A stretch of 64,000 nucleotides of DNA from a virus. The notes beneath the pieces are model-generated. The model was not told the DNA's origin and did no database searches. It was given only the letters and a program-made list of their open reading frames with translations. A program made the translations under genes and the position numbers. Below are positions 2,242 through 28,365 of this stretch, piece by piece. Position 1 is the stretch's first letter; every line of letters begins with the position of its first letter. The stretch is taken from the IMG/VR virus record IMGVR_UViG_3300024348_000004. One strand, written 5' to 3'.

Positions 2242-2903
2242 ACTACACTAATACATCACACGATGTCGTGCAAGGGTTCCTCTCTATAGAGGAATCCGAA
2301 CACATTGCTAGGGTATTGAAACGTTCAGAAAGAGACGTACTCAGACTACCCAATCCCGAATGGAACGATTCCAACTACCCACCTCTAACAAAACAACACG
2401 TAGTCTATAATTGGTTAACCCATCCCGACATCCGTCCGTTGAATATACCACAACGACTGCTCGGTCTTGACCTATTCAAAGATATCAACAATCTCACACT
2501 TCAATGTTGGGGTAACATATTACGACAGGGTGAACACATCACTCCACACCAACATCACGAAGAAGACAAAGAACCCCTATCCGACTTCCACAAAGATACC
2601 ACACCACAGGAACGAGCCAAAACGCAACTCGTCCCAATGGTCGCAACCAACATATTCCTAGACGGAGTAGAACCCTCATACACACATTACGAAGATACAA
2701 AACAAACGTTAAACATTAAGGGAGACTTACACATAGTAGGTGCATACCACAGACACGAAGTCAAGACGAATGTATACCGTACACCACGCTACTCGCTGGC
2801 CATGGATATCTATTTCAGAGATTACACCAAAGGATGGGATACGATAGAGAAAGGATTCGGTAACACTAAGAGGTTTGTTGACGTTTCCCGAAGTAACGTC
2901 TAA
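2229..2903 (+). CDS. Putative 2OG-Fe(II) oxygenase
   Basis: 'WGNILRQGEHITPHQH', distal 'HEV', 'RYSLAMD'. Confidence 0.65.
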   Translation: MVPVNYTNTSHDVVQGFLSIEESEHIARVLKRSERDVLRLPNPEWNDSNYPPLTKQHVVYNWLTHPDIRPLNIPQRLLGLDLFKDINNLTLQCWGNILRQGEHITPHQHHEEDKEPLSDFHKDTTPQERAKTQLVPMVATNIFLDGVEPSYTHYEDTKQTLNIKGDLHIVGAYHRHEVKTNVYRTPRYSLAMDIYFRDYTKGWDTIEKGFGNTKRFVDVSRSNV

Positions 2904-3096
2904 TCGTAAAGACTCGCATATACGCTACTATTGTCATGAACGCAGTAATGGTAGTACCGATAGTAAACGCAGAAGTCATCCCAAGAATTTCAATACAGAT
3001 AAACAATCCGATTAGATTCAGAGGATAGTTAATGAGCAGTCCAGTAAAGACTGTAGTAAAGGTTTCTTTGTGATATCTTCGAGTTTCTTTGTTCAT
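2866..3096 (-). CDS. Small membrane protein (2 TM)
   Basis: Two hydrophobic segments, C-terminal 'RRYF'. Confidence 0.65.
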   Translation of the reverse strand: MNKETRRYHKETFTTVFTGLLINYPLNLIGLFICIEILGMTSAFTIGTTITAFMTIVAYMRVFTIRRYFGKRQQTS

Positions 3097-3360
3097 ACCT
3101 TAGTATAACACGCTGAGATGCCTTTGTATAGGGGGTTTCGAATATAATGTCTGAGAGCGAAATGGGAGGATGAATATAATGTGTGTAGTAGTGTGCAGAA
3201 GTGTGTAATTATATTCGTATTTGAGATGGATGGGAGAATGTGGAATAAAGTGGGTTTTGGTGGTGCTGTTCGGGGATACAAAACCTATTTTTAGCGGAGA
3301 GTCAAGCACGAGAGCATGTTGACAGCACCTCAGAAACGTGATAAGGCAAGGCCATAGGGG

Positions 3361-3390
3361 TTGACAATGCCCCTCACTTTCTTATATAAT
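3361..3390 (+). promoter_or_regulatory. Early promoter with conserved CCCCTCACTT spacer
   Basis: TTGACA-atgcccctcactttctta-TATAAT. Confidence 0.85.
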
Positions 3391-3603: not shown

Positions 3604-3657
3604 AGGTAGTCGCTGGGAAACCCTTATGGGCAAGGCGTCTCAGAGGCGCCATAAAAC

Positions 3658-3687
3658 TTGACAATGGCCATCACTTTTTTGTATAAT
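3658..3687 (+). promoter_or_regulatory. Early promoter
   Basis: TTGACA-atggccatcacttttttg-TATAAT. Confidence 0.85.
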
Positions 3688-3693
3688 GGCTAC

Positions 3694-3792
3694 ATGATAA
3701 AGAAACTAAGAACTACTGGTCTGCTCGATGCGGACTTCCTTCAACCCCTACTGTGTCTTGCAGTAATGATAATCCTAGGAGAAGTGTTATGA
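3694..3792 (+). CDS. Small hydrophobic peptide, 32 aa, probably leaderless
   Basis: MIKKLRTTGLLDADFLQPLLCLAVMIILGEVL; ATG 6 nt after -10 box; ATGA overlap with next gene. Confidence 0.5.
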   Translation: MIKKLRTTGLLDADFLQPLLCLAVMIILGEVL

Positions 3793-4019
3793 TAAAGAAA
3801 GATGGTCACGGACTCATCGGTACTCACATCGCAACAGGTATGGGAGTGGAGATTAATCTAACCAAACAGGAGATGCTTCTTGCATGTGCGAAGGTTGAGA
3901 TTAATGAGTCGTGGGAGAAAGCCATGGACATGGTCAAAGCACGTCTCGGTATCGAAGTCATCGGTCAGATAGAAATTGAACAAATAGTCATAAATGGGGT
4001 TGCAAAGACCTTCCATTGA
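3789..4019 (+). CDS. Early hypothetical protein
   Basis: AGGAGAAG RBS before ATG 3789. Confidence 0.7.
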   Translation: MIKKDGHGLIGTHIATGMGVEINLTKQEMLLACAKVEINESWEKAMDMVKARLGIEVIGQIEIEQIVINGVAKTFH

Positions 4020-4028
4020 TGGTATAAT
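4000..4028 (+). promoter_or_regulatory. Sigma70 promoter with extended -10, upstream of candidate ncRNA
   Basis: TTGCAA-17 nt-TATAAT, with TGn before the -10. Confidence 0.7.
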
Positions 4029-4034
4029 TACTGT

Positions 4035-4400
4035 GTAACAGGGAAAAAAGAAGTTAATCTGAGAGTTATTCTTTTATTATGTACCTATGTGAAGTCTCAG
4101 AGGGTCATGTCCGAACATGCATAGCGGGATGAGAAGACCGCTGCTCTACAACGCAATAGCTGTAGGGCTCTCAGAGCGCCTTAAGTGGCGATAGGAGAAG
4201 TACATTCTGTGACTCTCTGAACCCCTGAGTTGCTCTCTAAGCGATTGCGTGTGTAGGGGACTATGAAACGCCTTAGTGGCGCTCACAGACTAACGCAAAA
4301 CAGTGCTGTGGGACTCCTAGAGAGATTCGAAGTCGGGTCATGCGCCCCACTAGATTTACTTTAAGGGTTTTCTAACACTTCAGAGAAAAAAATTCTCTGG
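4035..4400 (+). ncRNA. Candidate large structured non-coding RNA (family not recognised)
   Basis: GC-richer region without a credible ORF; many helices with G-U pairs, a duplicated hairpin, complementary loops and a terminal hairpin. Confidence 0.65.
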
Positions 4401-4427: not shown

Positions 4428-4922
4428 ATGAAAATTACTGGAACACACATTGCAATATTCGTTATTCTTACCTACTTCGGATTACAATCTACACTCGTAG
4501 AAGCAAATGACCAACTCAGACCCGATGATAATAGGTTTGGAGACGTAAGAATACAGGAGAATGTCTATCAAGGTACTGTTGTATCTGTATATTCTGTTAA
4601 GATTAAGAAGGATGAAGAGGGTTACTCTCTTTATGGTGGTCTCCTAGGCGGTTATCTAGCACGTGAGAGTATGAAAGGTAAGGGTGAGTCAGAGGAAGTC
4701 CTTGGTACACTCGCAGGCGGACTCGTAGGGTCTAAGATTGGACGTGAGGTAAATAAATCTCGCAACACCGTGGATGGTATACAGTTAATCATTGATGTGC
4801 CAGGCGTAGGTGTCAAGTCTATTATACAACAAAAGACTTCTGCATTTAATTTTAGTAGTGGTGATTCAGTTTATCTAGTCGGCACTCGAAATAATCTACG
4901 TGTATTGAAAAAAAACCCCTAG
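4428..4922 (+). CDS. Glycine-zipper 2TM (SlyB/17-kDa antigen-like) envelope protein
   Basis: Signal peptide; 'GGLLGGYLA...GTLAGGLVGSKIG'; C-terminal 'GDSVYLV' beta domain. Confidence 0.75.
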   Translation: MKITGTHIAIFVILTYFGLQSTLVEANDQLRPDDNRFGDVRIQENVYQGTVVSVYSVKIKKDEEGYSLYGGLLGGYLARESMKGKGESEEVLGTLAGGLVGSKIGREVNKSRNTVDGIQLIIDVPGVGVKSIIQQKTSAFNFSSGDSVYLVGTRNNLRVLKKNP

Positions 4923-5037: not shown

Positions 5038-6522
5038 ATGTCTTATATTAGTACAAGTGATGGTCTCGATACTTTAAAATCGACCTTGGAATCCTTAAAC
5101 CAATCAAAAGAGGGGAGTGCCTTTTCCGAGAAAGGCGAAATAGAGGTTTCGTTTGGTAATACCTACGTCAGTTCTCTGTTTGTTTTAGGTAACCGTTCCT
5201 ATCAAAGGGAAAAGGTTGCATCTATACCTTTTAAACAGGGTATACTTCAGACTGTTTTGGAGAATGCCTTTAAGAGGATTCCTCAAATACACATTCTAGT
5301 CAAGTTTGATGAGGATGGTAAGGTCACATCACTTGAGTTGATGGATGGCCAACAGCGTTTCTCCAGTCTACTCGACTTTGTCAACAATGAATTTCCACTC
5401 GCACCGTCTTTGACCGTTCGTGGTGTGAGATTAGGTGGTCTATACTTTAATCAGTTAGACGTTGACACACAACAGTTTATATTAAACCACTCAGTTGACG
5501 CTGTGTGGTATATGAATCTTAATTCTGCAGAAATCTCAGATATGTTTGTTGATGTGTTGAACAATACGAACGATATGAAACCACAAGAGAAGCGTAATGC
5601 ATACCTAGGTGAGTTCCCCGAATACGTAAGGGATACCTCTAGGACTACGCCTAAGGGGTTACCACAGACGTTCAAGTTCAATCCTTTGTTCGAACGTGTC
5701 ATTGACTCTAAAGGTAAGGAGACGTTGAAACACTTCTCTAAGAACTTTAAACTCAATGCAAGAATGGAAGTAGACCAGTGGGTCTCGCAACTTGCATACC
5801 TATCTTACTCTGCCCATGACTGGACGGATGGTATCTCGCAACAAGGACACTCTAAGTGGGTCAAAGAAATGACCACTGGTACAGGTGCATACGCAGAGTC
5901 GTTCACCGATAAGAAGTTTATGGACAAGTTATTGTCTGTGACTAAGGAACTGGTACAGAGTGTACCTAGTGCAAAGAGAAATCGTTTGACACCTGCTTTC
6001 ACTCACATACTTGCGTTGTATTATATGAACCTCACAGGGAGATTAAATTCAAAGGCAAGTGTTACCAAATCCGTCTTTGCAAATAAGTTTATTAGTGTGT
6101 TGGAAGAATGGAATGACAAGGACAAGGCACTCTTCAGAGACGAGTCTACCTATAACGGTAATCCTATGCCGCCTGCACTTGAACTCTTTGGTGGTTACAA
6201 CAAGAATGCAATCATGACGATTAAATCTATTCTTGATAAGTACGACCCACTTGAGTATGGTGTGACCTTTACAGACGATGCATCCTTTCCAAAGGAGTGG
6301 ATAATCAAGAAACTAGAGGAACAGGGTGGGACTGATTATTACACTGGTCTGCCTTTAGACATAGATAATGCAGAGGGTGACCACTATATTGCAAAGTCAG
6401 CAGGAGGTAAGACTGAATACTCTAACCTCGTAGTGTGTTCCCGAAGTGTGAACAGACAAAAATCAAACATGAGTGCAAAAGCATTCATCGAATATTGTGA
6501 ACAATTTAAACTGGAGAAGTAA
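5038..6522 (+). CDS. DUF262 (GmrS/ParB-like) + HNH endonuclease (GmrSD-like)
   Basis: 'YQR', 'LMDGQQRF', 'FVDVLN'; C-terminal 'DHYIAKSAGGKTEYSNLVVCSRSVNRQKSN' HNH motif. Confidence 0.85.
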   Translation: MSYISTSDGLDTLKSTLESLNQSKEGSAFSEKGEIEVSFGNTYVSSLFVLGNRSYQREKVASIPFKQGILQTVLENAFKRIPQIHILVKFDEDGKVTSLELMDGQQRFSSLLDFVNNEFPLAPSLTVRGVRLGGLYFNQLDVDTQQFILNHSVDAVWYMNLNSAEISDMFVDVLNNTNDMKPQEKRNAYLGEFPEYVRDTSRTTPKGLPQTFKFNPLFERVIDSKGKETLKHFSKNFKLNARMEVDQWVSQLAYLSYSAHDWTDGISQQGHSKWVKEMTTGTGAYAESFTDKKFMDKLLSVTKELVQSVPSAKRNRLTPAFTHILALYYMNLTGRLNSKASVTKSVFANKFISVLEEWNDKDKALFRDESTYNGNPMPPALELFGGYNKNAIMTIKSILDKYDPLEYGVTFTDDASFPKEWIIKKLEEQGGTDYYTGLPLDIDNAEGDHYIAKSAGGKTEYSNLVVCSRSVNRQKSNMSAKAFIEYCEQFKLEK

Positions 6523-27028: not shown

Positions 27029-27922
27029 TCAGCATCATTAGATAAACTAAGAGCAGCTATGGAAACTGCTTCACCTACAGAAGGTGCAAAAAAATCCTAC
27101 ACAGACGACACGATGTGGAAACCCGAACTTGATAAAACAGGTAACGGTTTTGCGGTAGTTCGTTTTCTACCCACACCCGAGGGAGAAGAGATGCCATGGG
27201 TATCATACTTTGACCACGGTTTCCAAGGCCCAGGCGGTTGGTATATTGAGAAGTCTTTGACTACACTTAATAAACAAGACCCTGTGTCAGAATACAATAC
27301 TCAGTTATGGAATACTGGGATTGAAGCAAACAAAGAAACTGCTAGAAAGCAGAAGAGACGTTTACACTATGTGTCAAATGTTTATGTTGTTTCAGACCCA
27401 AAAAATCCATCTAACGAAGGTAAAGTATACAAATACAGATATGGTAAGAAAATCTTTGAACAACTCAAAGAGGCTATCTCACCAGCATTTGAAGACGAAC
27501 AAGCAATCAATCCTTTCGACCTAAGAGAAGGTGCGAACTTTAAGATTAAGATTAGAAAAGTAGACGGTTACTGGAACTATGACAAATCAGAGTTTGACTC
27601 ACCTACCGCTTTGTTCGAAGATGAAGCACAGTTGAATACTATATATTCATCTGCTCATTCATTATCAGGCATAATTGCGCCAGAAGAGTTCAAGTCTTAC
27701 GATGAACTCAAAGAGAAACTCGATAGAGTTCTCGGTCTAACTGGTTCAGTGAGTAATTCAACTGCAGAGTCAGTTGCGGAAGATATGGACGAAGTGCCAT
27801 GGTCTAACGTTAACAAAGAGACGGTTGCAGATGAACCTGTAATCTCATCAGCGGAAATGTCTTCTAGTAGTTCAGAAGAGAATGATGCGATGGATTACTT
27901 TAAGAAGTTGGCTAACGATTAA
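27026..27922 (+). CDS. gp32: Single-stranded DNA-binding protein gp32
   Basis: 'WKPELDKTGNGFAVVRFLP', 'HGFQGPGGWYIE', 'NYDKSEF'; acidic tail. Confidence 0.97.
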   Translation: MSASLDKLRAAMETASPTEGAKKSYTDDTMWKPELDKTGNGFAVVRFLPTPEGEEMPWVSYFDHGFQGPGGWYIEKSLTTLNKQDPVSEYNTQLWNTGIEANKETARKQKRRLHYVSNVYVVSDPKNPSNEGKVYKYRYGKKIFEQLKEAISPAFEDEQAINPFDLREGANFKIKIRKVDGYWNYDKSEFDSPTALFEDEAQLNTIYSSAHSLSGIIAPEEFKSYDELKEKLDRVLGLTGSVSNSTAESVAEDMDEVPWSNVNKETVADEPVISSAEMSSSSSEENDAMDYFKKLAND

Positions 27923-27949
27923 TTAGTTAGTTAACTACTTATAAATGGG

Positions 27950-28108
27950 AGTCTACACATCTATATCATGTGTCCATGTGAAGTGTAGACTAACTGAGAC
28001 CGTAGGAATGGGGGTACTCAGTAAGGGAAAGGTAGTCGGGGTCAAAGCGGGGCTATCGGTACAGAGCGGGATGCTGTAAAGTTGATTGGGGCGACTGTAC
28101 ATCTTTTT
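27950..28108 (+). ncRNA. Candidate structured RNA / rpsU leader
   Basis: Four consecutive hairpins with G-tract loops after TATAAAT (27940); ends in a T-run. Confidence 0.5.
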
Positions 28109-28128
28109 AAATAACGAACGGAAAATTT

Positions 28129-28365
28129 ATGCCAAGTGTAACACCAAGAACAGATAAACGAAAGTCTAACGAAGAACCCTTTGATAGGATGTTGAGACGT
28201 TGGAAGAAATCATGCGAACGTGCTGGTATCGTTCAAGAGGTTAGAGACAGGCAATACTTTGAAAAACCTAGTTCTATTAAGAACGAGCAAAAACAGGCAA
28301 TCAAGCGTAGGAAAAAAATCAACGCAAAGAGGTCTGCTCAAAAAGGTTTTAGACTAGGGAGATAG
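28129..28365 (+). CDS. rpsU: Ribosomal protein bS21
   Basis: 'EPFDRMLRRWKKSCERAGI..EVRDRQYFEKPS'. Confidence 0.92.
   Translation: MPSVTPRTDKRKSNEEPFDRMLRRWKKSCERAGIVQEVRDRQYFEKPSSIKNEQKQAIKRRKKINAKRSAQKGFRLGR

Follow-up and report, generated by a model that had tools for sequence, protein, structure and literature searches.

The gene-free stretch at positions 4,035 to 4,400 of a 64,000-nucleotide viral sequence (IMG/VR record IMGVR_UViG_3300024348_000004; hereafter the window) carries a pseudoknotted RNA domain of ~100 nt directly behind an early promoter and a conserved, gapless site at its 3' end, with a variable middle between them. We read this stretch, tentatively and with a probability of roughly 0.4, as the right half of a single-copy control block of 1.0-1.5 kb that would serve as a transcription-primed replication origin with a structured primer RNA. 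The block is a precise origin candidate, present in single copy, whose three conserved parts can be recognised in dozens of uncultured genomes. The pseudoknot domain, whatever its function, is small enough for direct structure work. The genome from which the window derives is that of an uncultured marine T4-like myovirus with baseplate, RNase H and MazG genes. Its nearest record has a capsid protein with 68% identity to that of Methylophilales phage Melnitz.

Table 1. Features of the candidate control block and its flanks, in positions of the window.
Feature	Position	Strand	Description
Left element	3141-3305		Two AATATAAT boxes 32 bp apart; GTGTG three times, at 3181, 3191 and 3201; further fixed motifs
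76-aa ORF	3789-4019	+	Left flank of the region; end overlaps promoter; candidate block-associated protein
Sigma70-type early promoter	4000-4028	+	TTGCAA-17-TATAAT, extended TG
H-type pseudoknot	4046-4101	+	S1 4046-4052/4069-4075; S2 4058-4064/4095-4101
Hairpin P3	4106-4119	+	CCGA loop; double changes at 3/4 pairs
Hairpin P4	4122-4143	+	T-loop-like UGAGA loop; double changes at 5/6 pairs
Variable middle	4144-4299	+	CTNAG-rich
3' site core	4300-4348	+	Consensus ACAGT-N5-GGGACTCCTA-N20-A, then C-run
Parts of the site			ACAGT 4300-4304; 5 variable bases; invariant 10-mer 4310-4319; 20 variable bases; invariant A 4340; C-run 4345-4348
A/T tract	4386-4394		Fixed distance from site; A7T2, weaker form in this genome
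Glycine-zipper lipoprotein gene	4428-4922		Right flank of the region

Homologues divide the region into three parts

A sequence-only reading had taken the region for one large structured RNA of 365 nt, with duplicated modules and kissing loops. It had also noted alternative pairings, and more than 40 helices of at least 6 bp can indeed be drawn, so homologues were needed to decide among them. Synteny yielded one sister species and a third species, which lacks the lipoprotein gene; a motif common to these three species gave more relatives from IMG/VR and metagenomes, and an independent pattern built from the 5' part added 11 loci. The resulting set comprises 142 loci with 36 distinct sequence variants, from marine T4-like myoviruses, and divides the region into an RNA domain, a variable middle and a 3' site. 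RNA and site are present in one copy each per record.

The search for a known Rfam family that had been proposed as a check gave no match in Rfam 15 for the element in the window, at gathering thresholds or at E≤10 (manA, wcaG, GOLLD, ROOL, RNase P, tmRNA, riboswitches and introns included), nor for 16 further loci, 15 of which are homologues. ARAGORN found no tmRNA, blastn against GenBank phages returned nothing, and no copy was detectable in the cultured relatives Melnitz, HTVC008M, Mosig, DLP_6 and C48C1; two Melnitz matches that were examined lie within coding sequence. Pattern matches at L049 and L050 were discarded as chance, and loci anchored on MazG proved to be mostly unrelated phages without a copy. 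The one match among prokaryote genomes (L260, JAAXIF010000075.1) is a contig in a Sphingobacteriales MAG with the same phage context. It is probably mis-binned or an infecting phage and may be a host clue or a binning error; no host is drawn from it.

The genes downstream of the block vary by lineage (the lipoprotein gene in the window, unrelated ORFs or a new promoter elsewhere), and the block is therefore not a gene-specific leader. A riboswitch or gene-specific 5' leader was rejected because a consistent downstream gene class is absent, and a leader for the lipoprotein gene is ruled out by the lack of that gene in most homologues. A DUF7220 gene lies upstream of the region and reversed in the window (2866-3096, minus strand), and downstream of the site and forward in L146 and L178; this change of position and orientation indicates rearrangement around the block. 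A 494-aa protein (GmrSD-N plus HNH; 5038-6522 in the window), which has a promoter of its own, adjoins the block in three species.

The modules and kissing loops of the sequence-only reading fall in the middle part, the length of which ranges from 15 to 523 nt in the homologues and which is absent or replaced in some relatives. The middle contains a second promoter and an ORF of 57-65 aa in many relatives, and a CTNAG-rich stretch in others. CTNAG words number 7 in the 300 bp preceding the site, against a genome average of 0.86, and many of the alternative helices stem from their repetition. All of the helices that had been listed are present in the sequence, but most are not conserved, AGCGG/CCGCT being the only one that is. 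Of the largest (4097/4210), the 4210 arm is missing from the sister species and altered by mutation in close strains. Two copies of the CGCC hairpin are found in this species alone, against one in the sister species and none in the 19 other lineages. Both of the loops proposed to kiss, at 4151 and 4241, are changed in the sister species, with loss of the kiss; no other lineage has the 4241 loop, and the 4151 loop was judged from the sister-species and close-strain comparison. The absence of a credible ORF is borne out, with a 46-aa minus-strand GTG frame the only one present, while the GC content, described as richer, is raised but only mildly (0.43-0.47).

At 4192-4197 a word that resembles a ribosome-binding site, but is followed by no start codon, is probably a decayed site of this type, and suggests a decayed gene cassette. 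On these comparisons the middle is evolutionarily disposable. The ORF of 57-65 aa (L178:5263-5436, minus strand; L189:1935-2126, plus strand) has its own sigma70 promoter and stands between RNA domain and site in several lineages; it ends 1-20 bases short of the site and has no PHROG match. The arrangement is similar to the PeSL cassettes of T4-like phages, which likewise combine early promoters with small ORFs shuffled between conserved elements (PMC4122927, PMC2839356), and shuffling of this type may explain the variable middle, although PeSLs are multi-copy promoter-terminator repeats and the RNA and site described here are single-copy.

A pseudoknotted RNA domain and an invariant 3' site

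Covariation is confined to ~100 nt (4046-4143) and the 3' third of the region is DNA-like, so that a single 365-nt RNA is unsupported. The sigma70 promoter that had been proposed in front of the region is present and conserved, with a TTGACA-like -35 box across homologues and a -10 box upstream of the pseudoknot in every parsed homologue (the parse itself required one); the RNA domain starts no more than ~25 nt from the -10 box in most of them. The sequence-only reading had suggested a pseudoknot or a loop-loop multimer. A pseudoknot does exist behind the promoter, but its helix S2, the strongest real one of the region, had been missed, and the multimer is unsupported.

In an alignment of 21 sequences, with rows trimmed by reference to the 5' strand of S2, itself located by complementarity, the 7 bp of S2 are paired in 147/147 cells, and each of the seven pairs shows double changes. 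None of 500 shuffles reaches the S2 score, and slid controls come nowhere near it. Because the strand was located by complementarity, a test against foreign complements serves as a guard: S2 occurs in 12 sequence versions, and the complement is found in the version's own sequence in 12/12 cases and in foreign sequences in 9/132. The pseudoknot was recovered unaided by RNAalifold. S1 has 4-9 bp, with sequences that differ in each S2 class, and a conserved RAG precedes the 3' strand of S2. The stem of P3 varies from 2 to 7 bp across homologues and is weak in L190 and L285, while a P4 stem of 4-7 bp and varying sequence accompanies the loop motif in all distinct sequences that have it (29/29). 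Thus covariation, proposed as a check on the whole region, is found in the 5' domain but not in the middle modules and loops. The element is conserved far above the level of the flanking proteins. We regard the fold of pseudoknot and two hairpins as almost certainly real, and the assignment of the domain as an uncatalogued RNA motif, missing from Rfam, is well supported.

Folding of the region against shuffles gave z = -2.6 on the plus strand and -2.7 on the minus strand, values too similar for a choice of strand from folding energy alone. The domain is nevertheless probably a plus-strand RNA: pseudoknot formation requires single-stranded nucleic acid, and both the promoter and the G-U pairs, already cited for this strand by the sequence-only reading, point to the plus strand. 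Look-alikes of RNase P P4, group I P7 and tmRNA, recognised by eye, were rejected because the matching letters covary away among the S2 variants or stand in the wrong order. Among orphan structured RNAs of marine T4-like phages, the manA (RF01745) and wcaG motifs lie in the 5' UTRs of metabolic genes (PMC2864571), whereas the RNA of the block has neither a constant downstream gene nor an Rfam match. It shares with the ornate GOLLD and ROOL RNAs (bioRxiv 10.1101/2024.12.08.627333) the character of a phage-associated orphan structured RNA, but is conserved over only ~100 nt and not several hundred, and its kissing loops are not conserved.

The 3' site behaves differently from the RNA domain. The A at +21 and the C at +26 are present in 35/35 variants, while the 20-base spacer shows 38% identity between variants and never changes in length; the inner 5 bases vary between two fixed flanks, as the matches selected on the RNA alone show. 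An A-to-T junction lies at +67 to +71 in 25/36 variants. No covarying helix was found in the site (mean folding z -0.2), and no lineage-specific long-range pairing of site and RNA domain survives permutation tests: none of 12 long-range pairing tests is significant after correction, one sequence's empty segment shifting the absolute energies of four pseudoknot rows, a control and three tests, by a constant and leaving the own-versus-permuted comparison unaffected. As the site is gapless and without covariation, it is probably a DNA element (4300-4394), and its fixed spacing, free sequence and lack of pairing are the signature of a putative protein-binding DNA site. The non-template strand just before the site is G-rich (G 0.34), with clear G clusters in only 21/35 variants.

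Site and RNA domain lie 75-583 nt apart, and the site is single-copy in five long records. All 11 matches to the RNA pattern alone (6 distinct) carry the site downstream in the same orientation, and the RNA domain was never found away from the block. The site is kept without this RNA domain in three lineages (L186; L213, L222 and L229; L208 and L225, which both have a different pseudoknot), so the RNA domain is not essential. In L208 (3540-3690) a different pseudoknot-like element with a UGAGA hairpin occupies the same position, with a reverse promoter pointing toward it, and may be a replacement of the RNA domain.

The wider block

In 21 lineages a third conserved part, the left element, precedes the 3' site by 970-1425 bp. 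It aligns without gaps and is iteron-like, its three GTGTG words being spaced by exactly 10 bp; the GTGTG block is inverted as a unit in L200 and L220. It is present in one copy in four of five long records, its pattern being unmatched in the fifth. Directly upstream of the RNA, a homologue of the 76-aa ORF is found in 20 further variants at 35-57% identity. The protein has a confident alpha/beta model (pLDDT 95) but matches no known family or fold, the best fold score (Z 4.3) being uninformative, and comparison of the small ORFs of the block with PHROG, Pfam and folds gave no match.

Early promoters in the block lie at 3361, 3658 and 4000. At 3356-3374 and 3648-3695 the promoters have a stem-loop around the -35 box and an 81% identical 48-bp repeat, like PeSL cassettes.

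At fourfold sites the top strand is A+C-rich to the left of the block and shifts toward G+T on the right, with keto skews in plus-strand genes of -0.2 to -0.45 to the left and +0.17 to +0.19 just to the right. This step, which runs in the origin direction, is modest: it reaches z 2.5-4.1 (95-99th percentile) in five related genomes that have orthologous flanking genes in common, and equal or larger steps occur elsewhere. Coarse GC3 skew gave no signal.

A candidate transcription-primed origin and competing explanations

A replication primer RNA had been a minor alternative in the sequence-only reading; it is the reading favoured here, although not as a large multimerising RNA. T4 origins prime with promoter-made RNA, and the active ones are found close to shifts in base composition (PMC3016281). 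An early promoter, spaced repeats and a compositional shift as in T4 origins, together with a structured RNA and an invariant site, favour a transcription-primed origin. In its support we count the covarying RNA immediately behind a promoter, the gapless site downstream, the gapless repeats ~1.1 kb upstream, the strand-bias step, the linkage and single copy of RNA and site, and the G-rich non-template strand. Against it stand the lineages that keep the site without this RNA domain, the modest size of the strand-bias step, the ORF with its own promoter that often separates RNA and site, the clear G clusters in no more than 21/35 variants, and a GC content of 43-47% where T4 oriF has an A+T-rich unwinding element; the sole conserved A/T tract, at +67 to +75, is short.

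In such an origin, host RNA polymerase would transcribe the RNA right after infection, and the 5' pseudoknot domain would protect or position the transcript, or bind a protein. The G-rich stretch before the site could hybridise to the template as an R-loop, and a protein at the fixed-spacing site might set the position of the RNA cut or of the handover to the replisome. The upstream repeats would, as has been suggested at T4 oriE, serve as binding sites of an initiator or helicase loader.

The T4 origins have been mapped, and the rules for an origin are listed as open questions in a review (PMC3016281). The block resembles T4 oriE in kind, not in sequence: oriE has early promoters, small genes (repEA/repEB), evenly spaced repeats and a compositional shift (PMC3016281), but its repeats are 12-nt units, whereas those of the block are 5-mers at a 10-bp phase, and no sequence homology is shown. 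With oriF and oriG (PMC3016281) the block shares a promoter that fires into a downstream element and an RNase H gene in the phage genome. The promoter there is a MotA middle promoter and here a sigma70 early promoter; the T4 R-loop is sequence-independent, oriF needing no specific sequence or structured RNA beside its A+T-rich unwinding element, and the downstream region of the block is not A+T-rich. No covarying pseudoknot RNA or invariant downstream site is described for the T4 origins in PMC3016281, and the block has both. A literature search, which did not cover the candidate list of PMC10690425, found no such element described and no paper on the origin in marine T4-like phages.

Outside the phages, the block may be compared with the plasmid origin of ColE1. 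RNA II of ColE1 is a structured, promoter-made primer with G-rich and C-rich stretches, separated by some hundred bases from a fixed DNA position downstream. The block shares this arrangement and both kinds of stretch, but ColE1 is a plasmid with antisense control and an RNA of fixed length, whereas the distance in the block varies as given above and its RNA has no Rfam match. If the origin reading holds, the block would work like T4 oriE/oriF or ColE1, while departing from each of them in the traits given above. A more specific proposal is somewhat less probable: a clade of marine T4-like phages would have a sequence-specific ColE1-like origin, in which a pseudoknotted RNA dedicated to priming acts jointly with the invariant DNA site and the iteron-like repeats. 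If so, this RNA would be a type of structured origin RNA without a described counterpart in T4-like phages.

The strongest rival, which we judge unlikely but to be taken seriously, is that the pseudoknot domain is an early small RNA in its own right, which acts in trans as a protein decoy or as a binder of tRNA, ribosome or RNA polymerase via its T-loop-like hairpins, and lies beside an unrelated DNA site that is part of an origin or serves packaging or recombination. The compact, self-contained fold at the 5' end of the transcript and the site that exists without the RNA are consistent with this, as is the second promoter that follows at once in many lineages; in the lineage of L142, L147 and L183 a GC hairpin with a short T run comes directly after the RNA domain. 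The linkage of RNA and site could be mere synteny, the 76-aa ORF being equally linked. A terminator after the domain is missing in most lineages, however (this genome was scanned, the others judged by inspection), and an RNA acting in trans would sit uneasily with its constant confinement to the block.

Closest to the sequence-only reading is one long RNA running from the pseudoknot to the C-run, ribozyme-like or ornate, with the middle as a variable insertion domain; GG(G/T)T after the pseudoknot would pair with the C-run, and the invariant 10-mer would be a core or an anti-Shine-Dalgarno mimic. Pairing of 4-7 bp is possible in 24/26 pairs, and the 10-mer contains CTCCT, complementary to the ribosome-binding sites of a phage that also encodes bS21. 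Own pairing hardly differs from permuted pairing, however (4.6 versus 4.4, p = 0.058), and the failure of every long-range test after correction, the persistence of the C-run without the RNA domain, the unconserved kissing loops and an unpaired spacer of fixed length (20 nt), unusual for an RNA, make this explanation improbable.

Still less probable is a cis-acting, promoter-proximal antiterminator for a long early operon, with the 3' site as a separate DNA element. The model would be the put RNA of phage HK022, which consists of two hairpins and, unlike the RNA of the block, is not known to contain a pseudoknot. The position right behind an early promoter, the few consensus promoters in the next 20 kb of plus-strand genes and the varying downstream genes fit an antiterminator, but the RNA is single-copy despite several early promoters, and the second promoter that is often immediately downstream would bypass it.

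A packaging-initiation (pac) region or genome end, with the RNA incidental or a packaging helper, is very improbable. The asymmetric single-copy site, the A/T tract and the phased repeats do resemble the pac architecture of P1, SPP1 and P22, but the terminase-like gene, judged from sequence and gene order, is ~75 kb away, and contig ends do not pile up at the 3' site or the left element. That an intergenic spacer folds by chance holds for most helices in the middle; as an explanation of the 5' domain and the 3' site it is refuted by the complete covariation of S2 and by conservation far above that of the flanking proteins, and its probability is negligible.

Elsewhere in the window, the gap between a gene-32-like SSB gene and the phage bS21 gene (28129-28365) is conserved and structured-looking (27920-28128). 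It has no Rfam match at gathering score, and homology to the RNA domain was rejected because the model of that domain does not recover it; a 6-bp stem (27993/28017) and likely pseudoknots can be discerned in it, and it is similar in four genomes.
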